A program made the translations under genes and the position numbers. Positions 13,184 through 29,178 of a stretch of 64,000 nt of DNA are shown one piece after another. The notes below the pieces were generated by a model. That model made no database searches and was not told where the DNA came from. It saw nothing but the letters and a program-made list of their open reading frames with translations. Within the stretch, counting starts at the first letter, position 1, and each line of letters begins with the position of its first letter. This DNA comes from Acetobacter sp. 46_36 (lineage in GTDB: Bacteria; Pseudomonadota; Alphaproteobacteria; RF32; CAG-239), in the NCBI GenBank assembly GCA_001917135.1, contig MNTT01000008.1:78564-142563 (forward strand). Direction: 5' to 3'.

Positions 13184-15532
13184 TTATTCCGCAACATTTC
13201 CGCTTTCGGGAACTGTCGCAGCCTCCGATGCCTCATTCATTTTCTGAACATCCCCTGCACCCGGCGCAATCATATCCGCCGATACATCCCCTGCGCCCGG
13301 CACAACCGTATCTCCTGATACAACATCTGCCCCCGGCGCAACATTAACTCCTGACACATTTTCAACACCCGGAACAACCACTGCTCCGGTGGCATTCTCT
13401 GCGCCCGGAACAGCCGTATCCCCTGGCACAGCCTCGGCCTCAGATGCCGCATCTTCCTCCGGCGCGTCCGTTCCCGAAATGCCGTTGCTGCCGGGATTAA
13501 ACGAACGGATTTCCCCGTTATCGTCCATCTCCAAAATCAAATCATCAGTCGGTACAAAAATATTACTGTCATGAATTCGGCTGCCGTTTCTCCTCTGCTC
13601 GGCATTCTGTACCGGCTGTTCTCGTACGGCATTCTGCTGACTCAATCGTCGTGCCTGTTCCTGTGCCTTGCGCAGCTTTTCCTGATAAGCGCGGCTCTTT
13701 TGCTTATACTCCGCATACCAGTCCTGATAGTTGGCGGCAATGTTGGAAATCTTGCTGCCGCGAATAACCGAATTATTAATCAGGTTTTGCTTCAGGCTCA
13801 ACGCTTCGTCTGTTTTTAAATTCATATTGTCAATTGAATAACAGTAGTCCTGATACCGGATAAGCGTCTTGGTAAAATCGCTAGCCAGACAAATATTCGC
13901 ATTAATCAGAAACTTGGGGCGTTTCCCTTTGCGAATAGCCAGGTTGACCAACTGGTCTTTGACAAAGTTTCCGTATCTGCCGCCGGTCATTCCCGCCAAT
14001 TCGCGGATTGTGCTGACGCCCTGGATGATAATGTCGGTTTTGGCATTTTTATAACTTTCGGTAACAATATCCATATACTCCTGAAGTTTCCCAATAGCAC
14101 ATTTCGCCTGATCGGCATACGCCTTACGCTTTTCGTCTATTCCCCCGTTGGCAAGAGAATTGTCTTTCAAAGCGACCCATTCTTTTCTCGGCTTCAGGTT
14201 GCAGAATTCGTCATACATATAAATATCTGAGGGCAAATCCACATAAATCATATACACCTGCCCGGCTTTATCCCGGCTGAAATCCTCGCCGGCTTCGTCT
14301 ACCACCGCCGGTGCCCCTTCCAACGAGACCCTCCGGTTTTCAGCCGTTACCTTAATACCCTTCAGCGGCGACATTCCCGCCAGCATTTTGGCAACAGATT
14401 TCAAATCGCGGCTCTTCAGGCTGAGTATCCACTCCGTCAGCAGAGCATAAACGTTCTGTTCCACCGTCCGGTTTTTATCATAAACCGGCACCGTCTTATA
14501 GCTCTTAATGACGCAGCGGTCGGTATTCAGGCTCCCGCCTTTGATGCAGGTATTGAATCCCGGCATTGCATAAGTGCTGATGCCGTATCCGTTTTCCCAC
14601 AGATAATCATACAGCCGGTTCTCCTCCAGACTGAAATAATCCAATCCGCCGTGTATAAAATCCCAGCTGTTGATAAATTCCGAATAAGCGCGGTTGCCGC
14701 TGGTCGTGCTCGTATAATCGACCTGATTAAAAATATCAATCATATTGCTGACCGTTTCGTTCTTTTTGACAAACGCGTTCGGATAAATCTCAAAATTGTT
14801 CAGGGCATAAAAACCGACCATCAAATCCCGCAGTTCACGGAAATTATGGTCGCGGATGCTGTTCAAAAACTGATATGACGGGAACTTCGGCAGCATAAAA
14901 TAAACCAGATTGCCTTCCCTTTCCTCGCCGACTTTTGCCCCCAGCGCCTTAATTTCGCTGTATTCTCCTTTCGGCTGGGGTAGAAATTCGTTTTTCTTAA
15001 TCCCGATAAGGCCGGCAAACATCAGTACCATCGTAATAAAGAGCATGGCAAACGTCGACCTGAACGCAAAAAAGATAATAACGCCCAGCAGCAGCCCTAC
15101 CAGCCAAGCCGCCGGAACTATCCCGATAAACGTGAGCCAGCTGGCCTTTTTCTCCAGCCATTCCTCAATAAAAGTATCGACGTTAAACAGCGCAAACTGG
15201 TTAAAAAATACCACGACAATCAGCATTGTTACCAGCGCGCAAACGCCGTTCTGCAAATCCTTGGAAAAAGACAGCAGCAATATCAGGACAAACGAAAAGG
15301 CAAATATGCCGCCCAAAATAAATAACACAGCCTGATTAAAGGTTCCCCCCTCAATCAGCTTGCCGTTTATGGAATAGATAAACATCGCAAAATCTATTGC
15401 AAACAGCAAAAAGATATAAAACACCCGCAGCATTTTGTCATAAAAACGGTTGGCATCTCCCGACCAGCTGGCAAAACGGCTGGAACGGCTTTTTTTTCTC
15501 AAAACCAAAGGCTGGTTCACCCCTTCGCTCAT
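13184..15532 (-). CDS. Large membrane-anchored protein (782 aa) with C-terminal 12-residue tandem repeats; possible alkaline-phosphatase-superfamily exodomain
   Basis: About 5 N-terminal TM helices, then a large hydrophilic domain, then a tail of (V/A)PGxxxxxGxxV-type 12-aa repeats. It is the first gene of an apparent operon with the ABC permease and ATPase genes. Confidence 0.5.
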   Translation of the reverse strand: MSEGVNQPLVLRKKSRSSRFASWSGDANRFYDKMLRVFYIFLLFAIDFAMFIYSINGKLIEGGTFNQAVLFILGGIFAFSFVLILLLSFSKDLQNGVCALVTMLIVVVFFNQFALFNVDTFIEEWLEKKASWLTFIGIVPAAWLVGLLLGVIIFFAFRSTFAMLFITMVLMFAGLIGIKKNEFLPQPKGEYSEIKALGAKVGEEREGNLVYFMLPKFPSYQFLNSIRDHNFRELRDLMVGFYALNNFEIYPNAFVKKNETVSNMIDIFNQVDYTSTTSGNRAYSEFINSWDFIHGGLDYFSLEENRLYDYLWENGYGISTYAMPGFNTCIKGGSLNTDRCVIKSYKTVPVYDKNRTVEQNVYALLTEWILSLKSRDLKSVAKMLAGMSPLKGIKVTAENRRVSLEGAPAVVDEAGEDFSRDKAGQVYMIYVDLPSDIYMYDEFCNLKPRKEWVALKDNSLANGGIDEKRKAYADQAKCAIGKLQEYMDIVTESYKNAKTDIIIQGVSTIRELAGMTGGRYGNFVKDQLVNLAIRKGKRPKFLINANICLASDFTKTLIRYQDYCYSIDNMNLKTDEALSLKQNLINNSVIRGSKISNIAANYQDWYAEYKQKSRAYQEKLRKAQEQARRLSQQNAVREQPVQNAEQRRNGSRIHDSNIFVPTDDLILEMDDNGEIRSFNPGSNGISGTDAPEEDAASEAEAVPGDTAVPGAENATGAVVVPGVENVSGVNVAPGADVVSGDTVVPGAGDVSADMIAPGAGDVQKMNEASEAATVPESGNVAE
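13250..13429. repeat. 36-bp imperfect tandem repeat, at least 5 units, inside the 3' end of the 782-aa CDS
   Basis: Units: catcccctgcacccggcgcaatcatatccgccgata / catcccctgcgcccggcacaaccgtatctcctgata / caacatctgcccccggcgcaacattaactcctgaca / ... The unit length of 36 bp equals 12 codons, so the repeat stays in frame. Confidence 0.8.
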
Positions 15533-15599
15533 AGTACCCTCTGCAAAAATTAAACTTTACTCTAAAATACACGCCATTGCTAAACAAAAACTTAACCAA

Positions 15600-15870
15600 A
15601 GAAAAAATCGCACTTTTTTTCCAAAAACTTTCTGCTCCACCCCCTCTCCCGCATTTTCTGCCTCCTCGTCTTCCCCCTCCTGCCCTCCTCTGTTTTTACC
15701 GCTTCTCCCTTCTCCGTCTTTACCGCTTCGCCCCTCATCTATCTTCACTCCTCCCCCGCCTGTTTTCAGCTCCGGCCGCTCTGTCCCGTCTTTTTACTTC
15801 ACCCGTTCTGCTCACGTTTCCTGTTTTCCGCACCCCCAAAATCCACCCGTTCCCATTTTTTCGTCTTAAT
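15600..15870. repeat. Pyrimidine (C/T)-rich low-complexity tract on the + strand, with short internal direct repeats
   Basis: About 270 bp that is almost purine-free on the + strand (e.g. tttaccgcttctcccttctccgtctttaccgcttcgcccctcatc). It lies in the divergent promoter region between the 782-aa gene and ssrA. Confidence 0.7.
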
Positions 15871-15895
15871 CGCACCGTAAACCTGACGATAACTC

Positions 15896-15923
15896 TTGAA
15901 TTTTTGAAAACAGCTGTTATAAT
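15896..15923 (+). promoter_or_regulatory. Sigma-70-like promoter for ssrA (TTGAAT - 16 nt - TATAAT)
   Basis: The -35 element TTGAAT (15896-15901) is followed by a 16-nt spacer and the -10 element TATAAT (15918-15923). The predicted transcription start lies near 15930. Confidence 0.6.
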
Positions 15924-15929
15924 CATAGA

Positions 15930-16018
15930 CAGTTTGCGGCAATGCTGCAGGCTCTGATACGAAAAGCCGTATGAAATAGATATATTGGACCCGGGGGCGG
16001 TACCCGGCACCTCCACCA
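15930..16018 (+). ncRNA. ssrA: tmRNA (ssrA), acceptor piece of a circularly permuted two-piece tmRNA
   Basis: The segment ends ...GGAC-CCGGG-GGCGGUA-CCCGG-CACCUCC-ACCA. This matches the tRNA-Ala-like 3' architecture (GGAC, T-stem, 7-nt loop, T-stem, 3' acceptor strand, discriminator A, CCA). The 3' strand CACCUCC pairs with GGGGGUG nine nt downstream, giving a G3·U pair. The 5' boundary is approximate. Confidence 0.65.
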
Positions 16019-16027
16019 GTTTTTTAC

Positions 16028-16241
16028 GGGGGTGAAACAGGTTTGACAGTGTATAGTAAAGATATGTGGGCTGTATTCGGCAAGATACCACCGTTATCGG
16101 TTCAAATCAAATAAACGCAAATGATAATTTTGCACCTGTTGCCGTAGCTGCATAAGGCAAAGCAACAAAATCAATTCTCCAGGCTATGGTTAGCCCGGAG
16201 TGGGGAAGGAGCCGCCCAGCAACAGAACGGCTCATTTTGTT
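16028..16241 (+). ncRNA. ssrA: tmRNA (ssrA), coding piece with tag ORF ANDNFAPVAVAA
   Basis: Starts with GGGGGUGAAACAGGUUUGACAG, resembling the tmRNA 5' consensus (GGGGCUGAUUCUGGAUUCGAC in E. coli). The tag reading frame at 16119-16157 (gca aat gat aat ttt gca cct gtt gcc gta gct gca taa) gives ANDNFAPVAVAA*, close to the alphaproteobacterial tag ANDNFAEEFAVAA. A rho-independent terminator ends it at 16207-16241. Confidence 0.7.
16207..16241 (+). terminator. Rho-independent terminator after the tmRNA coding piece
   Basis: Stem GAGCCG - 13-nt loop - CGGCUC, followed by AUUUUGUUG. Confidence 0.5.
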
Positions 16242-16271
16242 GTAATTGGCATTAGCGTGGAAAAACCGGAA

Positions 16272-16736
16272 ATGACGGAATTCGTAAACGAAATAAACTA
16301 TGACAAACTGATTGAAAAAGCTCTCAAACAAGTCGTCGTGGAAGCGTTAAAAATCGCTGAAACACAAGGGCTTCCGGGCGAAAACCATTTCTATATCACT
16401 TTCAGGACCAATCACCCCGGTACCATTATTCCGCGAGACCTGCTTATTCAGTACCCTGACAGTATGACGATTGTTCTCCAGCACCAGTATTCGAATTTGG
16501 AAGTCGGAACCGATTCGTTTTCGGTAGAACTGAGCTTCGGCGGCCGTCCGCAAACTCTGGTCATTCCTTACGAAGCCATCACCTACTTCGCCGACCCTTA
16601 TGCCAAATTCGGCTTAAGCTTCTCTTTCTACGAAAATGGCGACGTCCACGCGCTTGATGACATTGAGCCGGAAAAGAAAGTATCCGGCGAAACAGCCCAG
16701 ATTATCTCCTTTGACAGTTTCCGAAAGAAACAATAA
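16272..16736 (+). CDS. sspB: ClpXP adaptor SspB (stringent starvation protein B family)
   Basis: MTEFVNEINYDKL...LPGENHFYITFRTNHPG...MTIVLQHQYSNLEVGTDSFSVELSFGGRPQTLVIPYEAITYF aligns position-by-position with the E. coli SspB core (...VDVTLPGVQVP...IVLNIAPRAVGNLELANDEVRFNARFGGIPRQVSVPLAAVLAIYA). The track ORF begins at a GTG at 16200 that overlaps the tmRNA 3' end, so the ATG at 16272 is preferred. Confidence 0.75.
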   Translation: MTEFVNEINYDKLIEKALKQVVVEALKIAETQGLPGENHFYITFRTNHPGTIIPRDLLIQYPDSMTIVLQHQYSNLEVGTDSFSVELSFGGRPQTLVIPYEAITYFADPYAKFGLSFSFYENGDVHALDDIEPEKKVSGETAQIISFDSFRKKQ

Positions 16737-16960
16737 TGCGCAAATTTTCCGTAATCATCGCCGGACGCCACGCAACAAGCATCTCGCTGGAAGATGAGTT
16801 CTATGCAGCGCTCTGCGCTCTTGCCGCCGAACGCAATATGACGCTTAACAAGCTGGTAACCGAAATTGACGGCACCCGTACGACACCAAACCTCTCATCG
16901 GCACTCCGGCTGTATGTCCTGAAAAGCCTGCTCGAAAAGCTCAAATCAGCCCAGGCCTAG
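16736..16960 (+). CDS. Ribbon-helix-helix (RHH_4-type) small protein
   Basis: 74 aa: ...GRHATSISLEDEFYAALCALAAERNMTLNKLVTEIDGTRTTPNLSSALRLYVL.., matching the conserved alphaproteobacterial RHH family (SxSLEDxFW..L..IA..R..SL..LV.EID..R...NLSSA.R..VL). Its ATG overlaps the sspB stop (TAATG). Confidence 0.6.
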   Translation: MRKFSVIIAGRHATSISLEDEFYAALCALAAERNMTLNKLVTEIDGTRTTPNLSSALRLYVLKSLLEKLKSAQA

Positions 16961-17094: not shown

Positions 17095-18168
17095 TTAAAG
17101 CTGCAATGCCTTAAAATCTTCATCCGTAAAAATATCAAAATCTCCATCTTCGGTATCGTCATTCCCCGCAATGCCATTCTCCGACGCACCATTATTCTCG
17201 GCACCATTATTCGCCGCACCATTCTCCGCTGCATCGCTCTTTTCGGTACCGTTCTTCTCCGCGCCATTACCCGTAGCATCATTCCCTGCCGCACCATTCT
17301 CCGCTGCGTCGCTCTTTTCGGTACCGTTCTTCTCCGCGCGATTACCCGCAGCATCATTCCCCGCTACACCATTATTCACCGCACTATTTTCCACAACATC
17401 ACTGCCCGAAAATAATACTTCGTCGGCCGGACCATCCGCATTATTTTCCTGCTGTTGATTTAAAAAGCTGGCCAGGCCGCCTGCTGAAGCCCCGCTTTTT
17501 TCCAGCATTTCTGTCTGATTTTGCAAAGCGGTGCCGCCGGAGCGCTGTTCAGCTTCAGAAGGCTCCTGCACTGGCACATTCTTCGCCCCGACCCGAGATT
17601 CATTCTCCGTTGCCTCAAGCGTCACCTTCCCGGGTTCAGCGGCTGTACCGACTGTTTTATCGGCAGAGGCGCCTTTCCGTTTAAACCCTTTCTTTCTTTT
17701 TTTCAAATCTTCTTTCGCCTGCTCGATTTTGACGTCCCTGTCGATTTTTTCATTATAATTTTCACTTTTCGGACGCGCAGCCTCTGCTTTTTCTTCTTCC
17801 ATCTTTTTCTTTGCCGCCGTTATTTCATCAATAACCGCCTGCGGAATATAATCCGTCTTCCCGCTCTCGACCGCTTTGGTTACAAATTCAAATTTCGCCG
17901 CCTTATACTTGGCCTCATACCAGGTCAGAATATCTTCCGGCTTAACGCCCTGGCTTATCGGGTAATACGCCGCCCCGCCCGCAACTGCACATAATAGAAA
18001 CAATACCCAAAACGGATGCCGCAAAATAAACAGCAGCATAAAAATCGGAAATGTAATAATGGTGAGGATAATATAAAAAAACTTAAATATCCCGCTTCTT
18101 TCTTTTGTTTCTGCCATAACACCCCTGCCTTTTTCCGGTCGGCATACAACCGCCGAAATGAATACCAT
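17095..18168 (-). CDS. Membrane protein with a Lys/Glu-rich linker and an acidic Asn/Gly/Ala-rich repetitive C-terminal tail (probable start at internal Met, about 18117)
   Basis: After the probable start (MAETKERSG...) come two TM helices. The C-terminus carries 25-aa tandem repeats (AENGAAGNDATGNGAEKNGTEKSDA) encoded by a 75-bp repeat. Confidence 0.5.
   Translation of the reverse strand: MVFISAVVCRPEKGRGVMAETKERSGIFKFFYIILTIITFPIFMLLFILRHPFWVLFLLCAVAGGAAYYPISQGVKPEDILTWYEAKYKAAKFEFVTKAVESGKTDYIPQAVIDEITAAKKKMEEEKAEAARPKSENYNEKIDRDVKIEQAKEDLKKRKKGFKRKGASADKTVGTAAEPGKVTLEATENESRVGAKNVPVQEPSEAEQRSGGTALQNQTEMLEKSGASAGGLASFLNQQQENNADGPADEVLFSGSDVVENSAVNNGVAGNDAAGNRAEKNGTEKSDAAENGAAGNDATGNGAEKNGTEKSDAAENGAANNGAENNGASENGIAGNDDTEDGDFDIFTDEDFKALQL
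17216..17365. repeat. 75-bp tandem direct repeat (2 units) within the 3' part of the 17095-18168 CDS
   Basis: Unit: gcaccattctccgctgc(a/g)tcgctcttttcggtaccgttcttctccgcgc(c/g)attacccg(t/c)agcatcattcc(c/c)(t/c)gc(c/t). The two copies are nearly identical. Confidence 0.8.
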
Positions 18169-24409: not shown

Positions 24410-26710
24410 TTAATACCTGATATGCTTCAACACAATAGTCGAAAGCGGCGGCAGCGTCAATTCAATCGAATGCGGGCGTCCGTGCATTCCTTCGTCAGAA
24501 GCAATCAGTTCGCCCTCGTTCTTAACGCCGCTTCCCCAGTAGTTCTTATCGTCGCTGTTAAAGATTTCCTGATAAGCGCCGCTGTCCGGAACGCCGATTT
24601 TAAACCCGTGCCGCACTACCGGCGTAAAGTTGCTGATAACAATCATATAGTTGTTGTAGTCATGGCCGCGGCGGATATAGGAAATCACGCTGTCGTTCGC
24701 ATTGGCATGGTCTATCCATTCAAACCCCTTGCCGTCAAAATCTTCTTCATAAAAGGCGGAATTGCCTTTGTACATCAGATTCAAATCCCGAACGCAGTTC
24801 TGCATTCCCTTATACATCGGATACTGCAAGAGATGCCACCTCAGGCTTTCATTGGCATTCCATTCCCAGTCCTGCCCGAATTCGCATCCCATAAACAAAA
24901 GTTTTTTGCCCGGATGCGTCCACATAAAGCCGTAATAAGCGCGAAGATTTGCAAACTTCTGCCACTCGTCTCCCGGCATTTTGCCCAGCATTGATCCTTT
25001 GCCGTGAACAACCTCGTCATGCGAAATCGGCAGGATAAAGTTTTCATTAAACGCATACAGCAGGCCAAACGTCAGTTTCCCGTGTTCGTACTTGCGGTAA
25101 ATCGGATCTTTGCTGATGTAGTTCAGCGTATCGTTCATCCAGCCCATGTTCCATTTATAGCCGAACCCGAGCCCGCCCATAGACGTCGGACGCGAAACCA
25201 TAGGCCATGCCGTCGATTCTTCTGCACAGGTCATAATCCCCGGGCAAGTGCCGTAACACAGTTCGTTCATCTTGCGAATAAATGCAATCGCTTCCAGGTT
25301 TTCATTACCGCCGTAGATATTCGGAATCCACTCGCCGGCCTTGCGCGAATAGTCCAGATACAGCATTGACGCCACCGCATCGACGCGCAGCCCGTCAATA
25401 TGATATTCTTTCAGCCAGTACAGTGCGCTGGAGCACAAAACGTTGCTGACTTCCGTTCTGCCGTAATTATAGATTTTCGTTCCCCAGTCTTTATGTTCTC
25501 CTTTGCGCGGGTCTGCATGTTCATACAGGTGTGTCCCGTCAAACTCAATCAGCCCGTGCCCGTCTTTCGGAAAATGCGCCGGAACCCAGTCCATAATCAC
25601 GCCGATATTCGCCTGGTGGAATTTGTCAATCATATATCTGAAGTCATCGGGCGTACCGAAACGCGATGTCGGCGCAAACAGCCCCGTAACCTGATATCCC
25701 CACGACCCGTCAAACGGGTGTTCGCATACCGGCAGAAATTCAACGTGCGTAAAGCCCATGTTCATCACATACGGCACCAGCGTATCGGCCAGCTCGCGAT
25801 AGGTCAAAAATTCCGAACCGTTTTCCCCTTTTCTGCGCCACGAACCGAGATGAACTTCATAAATGCTCGTCGGACGATCAAAGCTGTTATAAGCTTCGCG
25901 ATACTTCATCCACTCCCCGTCATTCCACTTGTAGTGGTTGAGGTCATAAACGACAGACGCCGTCTTCGGGCGTACTTCGGCATAAAATGCCATCGGGTCG
26001 CTTTTCGTCAGAATATAGCCTTCCTGCGTTTTAACTTCATACTTATAGAGTTCGCCCTCGCCGATATTCGGAATAAAGATATCCCATACGCCGCAGTTGT
26101 AATGTTTGCGCATAACGTTGACGCGGCCGTCCCAGTTGTTAAATGCACCGACAACCGATACCCGTTTCGCGTTCGGCGCCCAAACCGAAAAGCCGACGCC
26201 TTTCACCCCGTTGATTTCCATCAGGTGTGCACCCAGTTTTTTATAAAGGTCCAGATGGTTGCCTTCCGCAAACAGATACTCGTCTATATCGCCCAAAATA
26301 GACGGGAATGAGTAAATATCCTCTTCAACATACGTTTCGTTTTTATCATTGGTAATTTTAAATTTATGCGTAAAATTGTCCGTATTTGTAACCCCGAGGT
26401 TTATTTGGTAAAAACCTCTCTTGTCCAGCTTGGCCATCAGCCCGAGCGAATTGCCGTTTCCGTCCAGCAGTTCGATTGACCTTGTATTCGGCTTGTAAGC
26501 GCGGATATAAACTTCTTTGCTCCCCTTGTCCCGATGAATGCCCAACACAGCCATGACGTTTTCATAATCGCCGTTTATAATGCAGTCCATCTCTTTTTTT
26601 GAAAGTAAATTTTTCATATTCTCCCCGTTGCAGGAACTCAAAACCGCAAAGCTCTGCGGCTGTCCGTTATTCTCAGATTTGACAGTTTGTTTTTTAACTG
26701 TGTCGGCCAT
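24410..26710 (-). CDS. glgB: 1,4-alpha-glucan branching enzyme GlgB (GH13); probable true start at internal Met (about 26617)
   Basis: Carries a CBM48 region and GH13 motifs ([22 protein letters not shown]...). The 766-aa ORF includes about 31 extra N-terminal residues. Confidence 0.9.
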
Positions 26711-27466
26711 AACTATAACTCCAAAATAAAAACAAAAAATAGGTTACGTTTTATGTATAAAAACAAAACAAATAAATTGCAAGAAAATTGTCATTCTTTT
26801 TTTACTTTTTCCGTCGGTATTTTTCTTTTAAAATCAATATGGTTATGTTTTAAAATGCATTTCCGGCAAACGGTATGGAAAAAAGTTTTTTTCCGTCTGT
26901 TTTCCGCCCCGTTTCGCCATACATTTTGTCTCTGTTTTTTTATTATTTTTCACTCCGTTTTTTTCGTGTTTTTTCTCCTGTTTTTTTATATCGTTTTCCC
27001 GGAACGTTTTTCGCGCTTTTCTTCTTCCCGGCCCTCGCCGCCTTGCAATCGGCAGCAGCCCCGCCGGATACAATTTTGCCGGTCTCGCCCGATATAATAT
27101 TTTTATTTGTTATTGCGAGATTTTTTGCACAAGAGTTTGAAAAAAAATTTTTTGTTTTTTTTATTGCGCCGCACATCGTTTTTTATGTTGTTTTTACTAC
27201 CATCCGCGCACACTCTGATAAAAATATTTTATATTTTATTTACAATAGGTTATCATAACTTAAAATTCCTTATAAAAACCACTTTTTATTGTGTTTTTTC
27301 AAGGCTTAAAAAAAAATTTTCTGCCCCCCTTTTTTTTAATCATTTTTTAATCTATTTATGTATATACAAACACTAACAACAAAAACGATGAAAATTCGTA
27401 TTTACAAAATAAAAATTATATTTATACTTAACCTTGTTTTATAACAAAATTATTTGGAGAATTGAA

Positions 27467-27685
27467 ATGACATTCAATGAAAATTTAATCAGAGAAGCTG
27501 CTTATTACAACTGGCAGAATGCCGGTTGCCCGTTTGGTCAGGACGAAAAGTTCTGGAACATGGCAATCGAACAGATTTACGGTTCCAAGGCTGCAAAGTC
27601 TTGCTGCAGCACTTCTTCTTCTTCCAAGAAGACAGCTTCTTCCAGCAAAAAGACTTCTTCTTCAAAGTCTAAATCCAAGAAGTAG
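27467..27685 (+). CDS. DUF2934-like small protein with a Ser/Lys-rich tail
   Basis: MTFNENLIREAAYYNWQNAGCPFGQDEKFWNMAIEQI matches the DUF2934 pattern (IRerAYxlWexxGrPxGrDxehWxxAE). An RBS (GGAGAA) lies 6 nt upstream. The longer track ORF (27434) lacks an RBS. Confidence 0.55.
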   Translation: MTFNENLIREAAYYNWQNAGCPFGQDEKFWNMAIEQIYGSKAAKSCCSTSSSSKKTASSSKKTSSSKSKSKK

Positions 27686-27706
27686 GATTTGCTGAAAAAA
27701 CAAAAG

Positions 27707-27731
27707 GCCACCTTGATTAAGGTGGTTTTTT
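27707..27731 (+). terminator. Rho-independent terminator
   Basis: Stem ccacctt - gatt - aaggtgg, followed by ttttttt. Confidence 0.8.
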
Positions 27732-27921
27732 TATGTCTTCTGATACCGGTCATTATCCCTACCACCAATCTCTCCTGCCTGCCTTCCGCCCTGTTTTCGC
27801 TCTTCTTTCCCTCTGCTGCCCTCGCTTCTTTTTTCTTTACCGAATTTTAAGCTCTGCCGCATAAAATAAAACATATAATACAAACCGCACAATCTGCAAC
27901 TTGGGGAGCAAAAGCCGTATA

Positions 27922-29178
27922 ATGAAAATGAAAAAAATAAACCCGCTGAAAAGGCTGGATTTGGCCTGTTTCCTCCGCTCGCAGCTTTATCTTGCTCCGG
28001 TGCTGCTGCTCTTTTACCAGCAAAACGGACTGACCATCGCCGACTTTGTCCTGTTTCAGGGAATTTTCCAGCTGACCGGAATCTTGTTTGAGATTCCCTG
28101 CGGTTACATCGCCGACGTCATTTCCAAAAAAAAGGTTCTCGTCCTCGCTTTCGTCTGTTTCTTTCTCCGCGCCGCCCTGTGGCTTAGTTTTTCCGGCATG
28201 TATATCATTCTGCTCGGCGAACTTTTCAACGCCTTGTCGCGGGCATTTCTTTCCGGCGTTTATGACAGTTATATTTATGATTACCTGAAAAGCGAAAACA
28301 AAACCAAACGGATGCTAAAAGAATGCGGACGCACCAATTTCGCCATGTCTTCCGGCGCCATGTTTGCCGCCGTCTTCAGCGCCGTCCTGTACGACCGCTA
28401 CGGCACTGTCGTTTTGCTGTCGCTGGAATTTGTCCTGACGCTGGTCAGCATTGTCCTGCTCACCACTCTGCCCAACCCGCCGTCTGCACGTCCGCATGCC
28501 CGCACGTTGAAAGAAAAATTTGTTGAAATCAAAGATACCACCGTCGCCACGATAAAAAATCCCAACATCAACGTCTACATCTTGTATTCGGCACTCCTGT
28601 TTTCTACAACCTCCTTATTTTGCTGGTGTTTCCAGCCGCTGTTAAAAATGTCCGCCGCGCCAGTTCTGATGTTTAGTTCCATTTATGTCATCAATCATGC
28701 ATTGCGCGCCGGCTTTTCCTTTCACGTCAACCGATTGAAAAAGTTTTTCGGATTTAACCGCCTGCTGGTCGTTACAACATTCCTCTGTATTTATTCTTTC
28801 GCCTGTATGATATTAAGTTTCCATTTCCGACAGCCGAATGTGGCATTCATCTGTCTGATATTCGTCTGCATCGGCATCGGATTCCAACTGGCATTTGCCA
28901 TTGCCAATATTAACCACATCCACAACTACGCTATGGAAGAAACGCGCGCCACCATCTCCTCGGTTAACAATATGCTGCAGCAAACCCTTTCCGGCATTTC
29001 TCTGATTTGCTTCAAGTTTGTCATCGAACCGGGCAGCGGCACCGCCGGGCTTAGTTTTGCTTCGGCATTCTCGGTGTTCGGAGCGTTTTACCTGAGTTTG
29101 TTTGTCCTGTTGCTCTACATCATTTTCAAACGCAGCGCAGAACATGATGCGGAACACACGCCAGGAACCGCCTGCTGA
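27922..29178 (+). CDS. MFS-family transporter
   Basis: About 12 TM helices. An MFS motif-A-like loop (GYIADVISKKKV) follows TM2. The track ORF starts at a TTG at 27901; the first ATG is at 27922. Confidence 0.7.
   Translation: MKMKKINPLKRLDLACFLRSQLYLAPVLLLFYQQNGLTIADFVLFQGIFQLTGILFEIPCGYIADVISKKKVLVLAFVCFFLRAALWLSFSGMYIILLGELFNALSRAFLSGVYDSYIYDYLKSENKTKRMLKECGRTNFAMSSGAMFAAVFSAVLYDRYGTVVLLSLEFVLTLVSIVLLTTLPNPPSARPHARTLKEKFVEIKDTTVATIKNPNINVYILYSALLFSTTSLFCWCFQPLLKMSAAPVLMFSSIYVINHALRAGFSFHVNRLKKFFGFNRLLVVTTFLCIYSFACMILSFHFRQPNVAFICLIFVCIGIGFQLAFAIANINHIHNYAMEETRATISSVNNMLQQTLSGISLICFKFVIEPGSGTAGLSFASAFSVFGAFYLSLFVLLLYIIFKRSAEHDAEHTPGTAC

Follow-up and report, generated by a model that had tools for sequence, protein, structure and literature searches.

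The locus examined here raises the question of whether a CCA-ended, tRNA-like segment and the short tag-encoding frame that follows it belong to one gene and, if so, whether that gene is an ssrA of the circularly permuted type, whose product, the tmRNA, is assembled from two pieces of RNA. The locus lies in a 64-kb stretch of DNA (positions 1-64000), the whole of which was analysed and is referred to as the window. Knowledge of the permuted gene form goes back to 2000 (Keiler, Shapiro and Williams 2000, cited in PMC3985003); the form itself, its two-piece processing and its function in Caulobacter have been described (PMC3985003; PMC11915505), and 11,946 distinct permuted tmRNA sequences have been catalogued (PMC11915505). 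The alphaproteobacterial, betaproteobacterial and cyanobacterial lineages of permuted tmRNAs are independent of one another (PMC3985003; PMC11915505).

The identity of the host bears on what should be found. Proteins identical to the MalQ and SspB of the window are deposited under the MAG ‘Acetobacter sp. 46_36’, and their protein-cluster relatives under Candidatus Scatocola faecigallinarum (Alphaproteobacteria, Rhodospirillales), both names being the depositors’ labels. A protein identical to the window MalQ occurs in more than 1000 assembly blocks; the loci that we read are metagenome contigs of 99-100% identity, with labels in the style of human-gut cohorts. In an alphaproteobacterial host, a two-piece tmRNA is the expected form. 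We conclude that the locus is almost certainly the chromosomal ssrA gene of its host, circularly permuted and of the two-piece tmRNA type. The support lies at the level of sequence, namely gene order, family membership, covarying base pairs, the tag frame and the linkage to sspB. This is an ordinary, already known kind of gene and its annotation is routine; the main value of the result is a correct annotation for the ssrA of a prevalent, uncultured human-gut alphaproteobacterium. The gene as a whole is delimited as follows.

15926-16246, + strand: ARAGORN call of a permuted ssrA gene (pre-tmRNA); 15892-16236 is covered by the Rfam alpha_tmRNA match

The first-pass annotation had proposed a permuted, two-piece tmRNA, and two kinds of search agreed with it. 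ARAGORN reported a tmRNA* (its permuted class) at 15926-16246 on the + strand, with the tag ANDNFAPVAVAA*, and called no tRNA at the site. When the whole 64-kb window was compared with the Rfam covariance models, the best families were alpha_tmRNA (RF01849; 199.1 bits, E 4.7e-56, model positions 1-355 of 355, at 15892-16236) and tmRNA_permuted (RF04321; 145.5 bits, E 1.1e-28, model positions 1-213 of 213, at 15956-16155), both matched over their full length and well above the curated gathering thresholds of 50 and 47 bits, respectively. Both matches recurred when the sub-region was rescanned, and the RF01849 alignment of the window flagged zero non-standard pairs. A match to STnc320 on the minus strand scored 22.7 bits (E 0.16), below the cut-off of 50, and was taken as chance.

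To place the locus among its relatives, we used a scan for the tRNA-like core with a linker of 0-30 nt, taking one genome per species. The scan returned at least 120 loci, nearly all of them labelled as alphaproteobacteria. ARAGORN called a tmRNA in 104 of the 120 matches listed, and all 104 were of the permuted form. The RF01849 score of the window (199 bits) lies below the 218-275 bits of the 16 short-linker relatives tested; the window gene is therefore a somewhat divergent member of the alpha_tmRNA family.

The permuted order can be read directly from the sequence: the CCA end at 16016-16018 comes first, the strand GGGGGUG at 16028-16034 second, and the tag at 16117-16155 last. The two pieces and the parts that join them are listed here.

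15930-16018, + strand: acceptor piece, about 89 nt, its 5′ end approximate (structure line of the covariance-model alignment, RNAalifold consensus, window pairs and minimum free energy (MFE) hairpin)
15931-15953, + strand: 5′ hairpin of the acceptor piece (MFE fold)
15991-16007, + strand: T arm, with stem strand CCGGG at 15991-15995, loop GGCGGUA at 15996-16002 and stem strand CCCGG at 16003-16007, preceded by GGAC
16008-16014, + strand: 3′ acceptor strand CACCUCC, followed by discriminator A at 16015 and an encoded CCA at 16016-16018
16019-16027, + strand: intervening segment GUUUUUUAC, 9 nt, read from the sequence; the mature RNA is predicted to lack it
16028-16240, + strand: coding piece, about 213 nt, its 3′ end approximate (covariance-model alignment, RNAalifold and window pairs)
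16028-16034, + strand: 5′ acceptor strand GGGGGUG, running on into AAACAGGUUUGAC; the coding piece opens with GGGGGUGAAACAGGUUUGAC at 16028

The acceptor stem forms across the intervening segment. All seven of its pairs are present in the window, including G16030·U16012, as had been claimed at the outset for the pairing of CACCUCC with GGGGGUG through the G·U pair that marks alanine identity. That U·G pair is kept in every one of the 49 alphaproteobacterial tmRNAs aligned (the window and 48 from the matches listed). Pair 6:67 of the same stem is G-C in 109, A-T in 10 (the type found in the window) and G-T in one of the 120 matches listed, and it thus covaries across the linker. The exact sequence CACCTCCACCA, which comprises the 3′ acceptor strand and ACCA, occurs as a single copy in the 64-kb window, at 16008-16018, and no CCA-ended strand complementary to GGGGGUG was found between the tag and the next gene. 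Looser matches to the acceptor end (up to two mismatches) occur in the window at the rate expected by chance, the nearest downstream being 3 kb off. The earlier statement that no CCA-terminated acceptor strand lies 3′ of the tag thus stands.

The T loop had been flagged as a caveat on account of its departure from the canonical sequence. The description of the loop as GGCGGUA was accurate; its oddity was not borne out, as the entire arm, CCGGG-GGCGGUA-CCCGG, equals the RF01849 consensus, and the adjoining upstream sequence GGACCCGGGGGC, which lay outside the search pattern, is invariant in 49 of 49 aligned sequences. A GGCGGUA T loop is no warning sign in an alpha-type permuted tmRNA gene.

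The same holds for the 9-nt linker, whose length had been correctly given and wrongly called unusually short. The 120 matches listed have linkers of 3-30 nt, the upper value being the most that the pattern allowed; a length of exactly 9 nt is seen in eight of these species, and one of at most 12 nt in 22. Each of the 16 short-linker loci checked gave a full- or near-full-length RF01849 match at 218-275 bits. Linkers of 3-12 nt are therefore common in alpha-type permuted tmRNA genes, and a 9-nt spacer gives no cause for suspicion.

Copies of the locus in the gut population offered a further view of the linker. Comparing the window with six metagenome copies, we found its T-run to be T6 in the window and in L001, L002 and L003, and T7 in L004, L005 and L006, so that the linker measures 9 or 10 nt across the seven. 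Both mature pieces are free of substitutions in all seven copies. The only other intragenic variant is at position 15929, at the 5′ edge, and the spacer upstream of ssrA holds five variable positions. A variable linker between invariant mature pieces would fit a discarded spacer between two constrained RNAs.

That upstream spacer (15533-15895) is very rich in C and T and accounts for most of the polymorphism between strains. An imperfect 24-nt tandem repeat, CCCTCCTCTGTTTTTACCGCTTCT, occupies 15683-15730, and a frame of 48-60 aa, lacking a family match, is called on the opposite strand of the spacer.

In a two-piece tmRNA, the pieces should also be held together by helices equivalent to P2, a pairing that had been singled out for checking. 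Their strands are distributed over both pieces.

15956-15960, 15967-15972, 15981-15982 and 15985-15987, + strand: P2 5′ strands in the acceptor piece (covariance-model alignment, RNAalifold consensus)
16047-16049, 16052-16053, 16064-16069 and 16073-16077, + strand: P2 3′ strands in the coding piece (covariance-model alignment, RNAalifold, window pairs)

An RNAalifold consensus of the 49 alphaproteobacterial tmRNAs (the window plus 48 of the matches listed) comprised 28 pairs, distributed over the T arm, the linker-spanning acceptor stem and four inter-piece helices of the P2 type. Compensatory changes were observed at 15 of the 28, that is, at 14 of the 16 inter-piece P2 pairs and at one pair of the acceptor stem. 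The window forms all 28, the 16 inter-piece pairs included, and the P2-equivalent pairing is in this way supported by covariation. With energy-based folding, the MFE structure of the whole precursor (z = -1.9) contained the T arm and the acceptor stem, and a co-fold of the two pieces (z = -3.0 relative to a shuffled acceptor piece) contained the inter-piece acceptor stem. In place of P2, the MFE structures of both precursor and co-fold chose a long-range helix foreign to the family, which in the co-fold pairs 15959-15970 with 16227-16240. This helix was set aside in favour of the covariation; since energy folding alone prefers it, the case for P2 is made by covariation and the covariance model.

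Upstream of the resume codon, the coding piece contains a candidate for the pseudoknot PK1.

16078-16104, + strand: PK1, from covarying columns and an explicit H-type structure that was scored
16078-16080 with 16091-16093, + strand: PK1 helix of CGG with CCG, from covariation
16084-16085 and 16088-16089 with 16099-16100 and 16102-16103, + strand: PK1 helix of GA and CC with GG and UC, from covariation

Helices guessed by eye did not fit some of the relatives and were replaced by an exhaustive scan for covarying columns, after which one explicit H-type structure was scored in the relatives. This structure paired 89.9% of cells, compared with at most 51% in slid controls, and showed compensatory changes at two pairs (alignment columns 13:27 and 19:50). 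Seven of its eight pairs form in the window, the exception being an A·A apposition at 16083:16104. Pair 18:51 is weak (unpaired in 21 of 51), and the register of its helix is uncertain. The data suggest, with moderate confidence because the helices are short, that PK1 precedes the resume codon in the window ssrA.

The tag itself is encoded by a frame with an alanine resume codon in place of a start codon and with a hydrophobic end in AA before the stop.

16117-16155, + strand: tag frame, with resume codon GCA at 16117, encoding ANDNFAPVAVAA, and stop UAA at 16153-16155 (sequence and ARAGORN)

Its codons are GCA AAU GAU AAU UUU GCA CCU GUU GCC GUA GCU GCA UAA. The ARAGORN coding part, 192-230 counted from a gene start at 15926, agrees with 16117-16155; the frame had been recognized correctly in the first-pass annotation, and its placement at 16119-16157 was 2 nt off. 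The tag falls in the ANDN...AA family of the 104 relatives that ARAGORN called among the matches listed. Near-identical tags recur among these listed relatives, ANDNYAPVAVAA in 12 and ANDNFAPVAQAA in three. The Caulobacter tag is AANDNFAEEFAVAA (PMC9393093), and the resemblance that had been noted is real, with the start ANDNFA and the end AVAA shared.

The surroundings of the gene were then annotated, from a promoter-like site at its 5′ edge to the gene pair downstream.

15896-15923, + strand: sigma-70-like promoter, with -35 TTGAAT at 15896-15901, a 16-nt spacer and a TG-extended -10 TATAAT at 15918-15923
16177-16242, + strand: 3′ hairpins of the coding piece (MFE and centroid folds)
16177-16200, + strand: 3′ hairpin 1, CUCCAGGCU..AGCCCGGAG (MFE and centroid folds)
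16209-16233, + strand: 3′ hairpin 2, GAGCCG..CGGCUC, with the conserved loop motif GCAACAGAA and followed by AUUUUGUUG
16272-16736, + strand: sspB, 154 aa, ClpXP adaptor for ssrA-tagged proteins (Pfam SspB PF04386, E 3.3e-37)
16736-16960: ribbon-helix-helix (RHH_4) gene following sspB (gene context)

The promoter-like site matches the consensus at 10 of 12 positions, carries TG before the -10 and lies just 5′ of the ARAGORN start at 15926; positions 1-33 of the RF01849 model cover it. It presumably drives transcription of ssrA. At the other end, the hairpins and AUUUUGUUG (16177-16242) probably constitute the 3′ end or a weak terminator, and the RF01849 consensus conserves GGCAACAGAA.

SspB acts as an adaptor, passing proteins that bear the ssrA tag to ClpXP (PMC3985003). 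Its gene starts about 30 nt past the tmRNA gene and is called at the same place in the six metagenome copies. Among the matches listed, a homologue of sspB lies downstream on the same strand at 91 of the 110 informative alphaproteobacterial tmRNA loci, mostly directly adjacent. In the listed loci sspB starts a median of 303 nt after the coding piece begins, and in the window 235 nt after it. In the matches listed, ssrA and sspB are thus tightly linked across the alphaproteobacteria. As this gene order is common to most of the listed loci, the window ssrA is a native chromosomal locus and not part of an island. A crude regex scan for an smpB motif found none in the 64-kb window; smpB need not be linked to ssrA.

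The proximity of the two genes invites a proposal that we regard as rather unlikely: that ssrA and sspB form a conserved expression unit in alphaproteobacteria, in which sspB would be transcribed either by read-through from the ssrA promoter or from a -10-like GATAAT within ssrA (16101-16128). Read-through is suggested by the gap of about 30 nt, by the interrupted U tract at the 3′ hairpin and by the fact that a separate promoter for sspB is not evident; co-transcription of the pair is speculation. If true, read-through or an internal promoter would tie the supply of the adaptor to the synthesis of tmRNA. The promoter-like site inside ssrA (+ strand) consists of TTCAAA, 16 nt and GATAAT, with nine of 12 consensus matches. 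Its GATAAT is made by the conserved Asn-Asp-Asn codons of the tag and is positioned where sspB could be driven; the site is probably coincidental, as such sites occur at chance level in the region.

The data hold nothing that genuinely contradicts the permuted reading, and other readings of the locus can be weighed against it. The one that survives best, although we hold it to be very improbable, is that of a decayed or accessory copy of ssrA, borne for example by a mobile element and distinct from the working tmRNA. An RF01849 score below that of the relatives would suit such a copy, and the window is part of the genome only, so that a second gene could lie elsewhere. A decaying gene would hardly form 28 of 28 consensus pairs and keep its resume codon, tag and stop intact, however, nor would its mature parts be expected to stay invariant in seven population copies whose flanks and linker vary. 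The ssrA-sspB order, native to alphaproteobacteria, likewise argues against such a copy, and the adjacent genes examined included no integrase.

A far more remote alternative is a standard one-piece tmRNA, with its true 3′ end downstream of the tag and the CCA-ended element upstream unrelated to it. Clan competition in cmscan hides lower-scoring matches to RF00023, the one-piece model, and a weak hit of this kind would have gone unlisted; positive support for the reading was not found. Against it, ARAGORN calls the permuted form, the permuted models RF01849 and RF04321 are matched at full length, and the sole 3′ acceptor strand complementary to GGGGGUG is the upstream one at 16008-16018. The start of sspB at 16272, moreover, leaves no downstream space for a T arm. 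Just as negligible is a tRNA-Ala gene or fragment that ends at 16018 and lies by chance beside a tag-like short frame: the T arm, acceptor strand, discriminator A and CCA are indeed tRNA-like, but ARAGORN calls no tRNA at the site, a D arm and an anticodon arm are absent, the stretch 5′ of the T arm forms its pairs with the coding piece and covaries with it in 49 species, the 5′ acceptor strand comes after the CCA, and the tag is of the alphaproteobacterial ANDN..AA family.

Returning to the permuted, two-piece ssrA, we infer the start and end of its transcription, its processing, its charging and its function from the model established for permuted tmRNAs, in which one precursor is cut by tRNA enzymes into two paired pieces (PMC3985003; PMC11915505). 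In the window, the promoter at 15896-15923 would be followed by the start of a single precursor transcript, near 15926-15930. A cut by RNase P 5′ of G16028, as established tmRNA and tRNA processing would predict, would release the coding piece; the 9-nt linker would be removed, and the encoded CCA at 16018 exposed, by 3′ trimming or tRNase Z. For so short a linker, by our own inference, one RNase P cut and exonucleolytic trimming of nine bases could be enough. The pieces, of about 89 and about 213 nt, would be held together by an acceptor stem of 7 bp and P2-type helices of about 16 bp in all, in a tRNA-Ala-like domain, the CCA end of which alanyl-tRNA synthetase would charge via the G3·U70 pair. 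With SmpB, the tmRNA would enter stalled ribosomes; translation would resume at GCA 16117 and append (A)ANDNFAPVAVAA, a degron that would send the tagged protein to ClpXP, aided by the SspB encoded directly downstream. The trans-translation and SspB-ClpXP tagging pathway of this gut alphaproteobacterium looks intact.

The closest relative with experimental support is the two-piece tmRNA of Caulobacter crescentus (Keiler, Shapiro and Williams 2000, as reported in PMC3985003). The window shares with Caulobacter and RF01849 the order of acceptor piece, linker and coding piece, the GGCGGUA T loop, the linker-spanning acceptor stem with its G·U pair, the inter-piece P2 helices and a PK1 before the tag. 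It shares with Caulobacter the ANDNFA start and AVAA end of the tag, as well as the presence of an SspB-family adaptor. The differences are modest: the middle of the tag is EEF in Caulobacter and PV in the window, with 13 and 12 residues encoded, respectively; the RF01849 consensus linker is about 28 nt long in comparison to 9 nt in the window, within a family range of 3-30+ nt; and the 3′ region of the window is somewhat divergent from Caulobacter and RF01849, with a lower model score (199 bits).

The betaproteobacterial and cyanobacterial permuted tmRNAs (RF01850 and RF01851) exhibit the same permutation and a two-piece mature RNA. Their families have been merged with RF01849 into RF04321, and the shared tRNA-like domain scores 145.5 bits in the window. 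The clade-specific 5′ and 3′ regions of the window, together with its T-loop and P2 sequence, follow the alpha model and not RF01850 or RF01851. The standard one-piece tmRNA (RF00023) has in common with the window a tRNA-Ala-like domain with G3·U70, PK1, a tag frame with an alanine resume codon and a hydrophobic C-terminus in AA. RF00023 begins with the 5′ acceptor strand and ends with the T arm and CCA; the window has the opposite order, and its tmRNA has to be divided into two pieces. Beyond tmRNA, the permuted tRNA genes of Cyanidioschyzon and related algae likewise place the 3′ half upstream of a short linker and rely on tRNA-processing enzymes (PMC3978253). The algal transcripts are circularised and re-cut to a one-piece tRNA (PMC3978253), whereas the tmRNA stays as two base-paired pieces.

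One locus in the linker scan stood apart by its label. L071 (CAZITL010000011.1) carries an alpha-type permuted tmRNA core with an 11-nt linker in a MAG labelled ‘uncultured Verrucomicrobiales bacterium’, and is likely a mis-binned or mislabelled alphaproteobacterial contig.

Several features of the window outside ssrA were also recorded. Two proteins encoded on the - strand near the locus are repeat-bearing and have no Pfam or NCBIfam match. The first (17095-18168, 357 aa) contains 75-nt and 45-nt tandem DNA repeats at 17173-17373, which encode repeats of the NGAAGNDA/AEKNGTEKSDAAE type; in population copies its called length is 310, 315 or 340 aa, and in L006 it is uncalled. An N-terminal hydrophobic stretch suggests that this repeat-length-variable protein may be surface-exposed or secreted. 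The second (13184-15532, 782 aa) is conserved in all six metagenome copies; several hydrophobic segments lie towards its N-terminus, and its C-terminal part contains a 36-nt tandem repeat rich in VPG/APG (13248-13358). The GC skew is negative throughout the window (1-64000), about -0.06 to -0.31 per 2-kb bin and typically about -0.2, a strand asymmetry that is unusually strong for a genome of about 48% GC and that accompanies genes on both strands. Local GC falls to 0.384 at 26001-28000, compared with about 0.47-0.52 elsewhere in the window, and a T-rich 23-nt tandem repeat occurs at 26923-26989.
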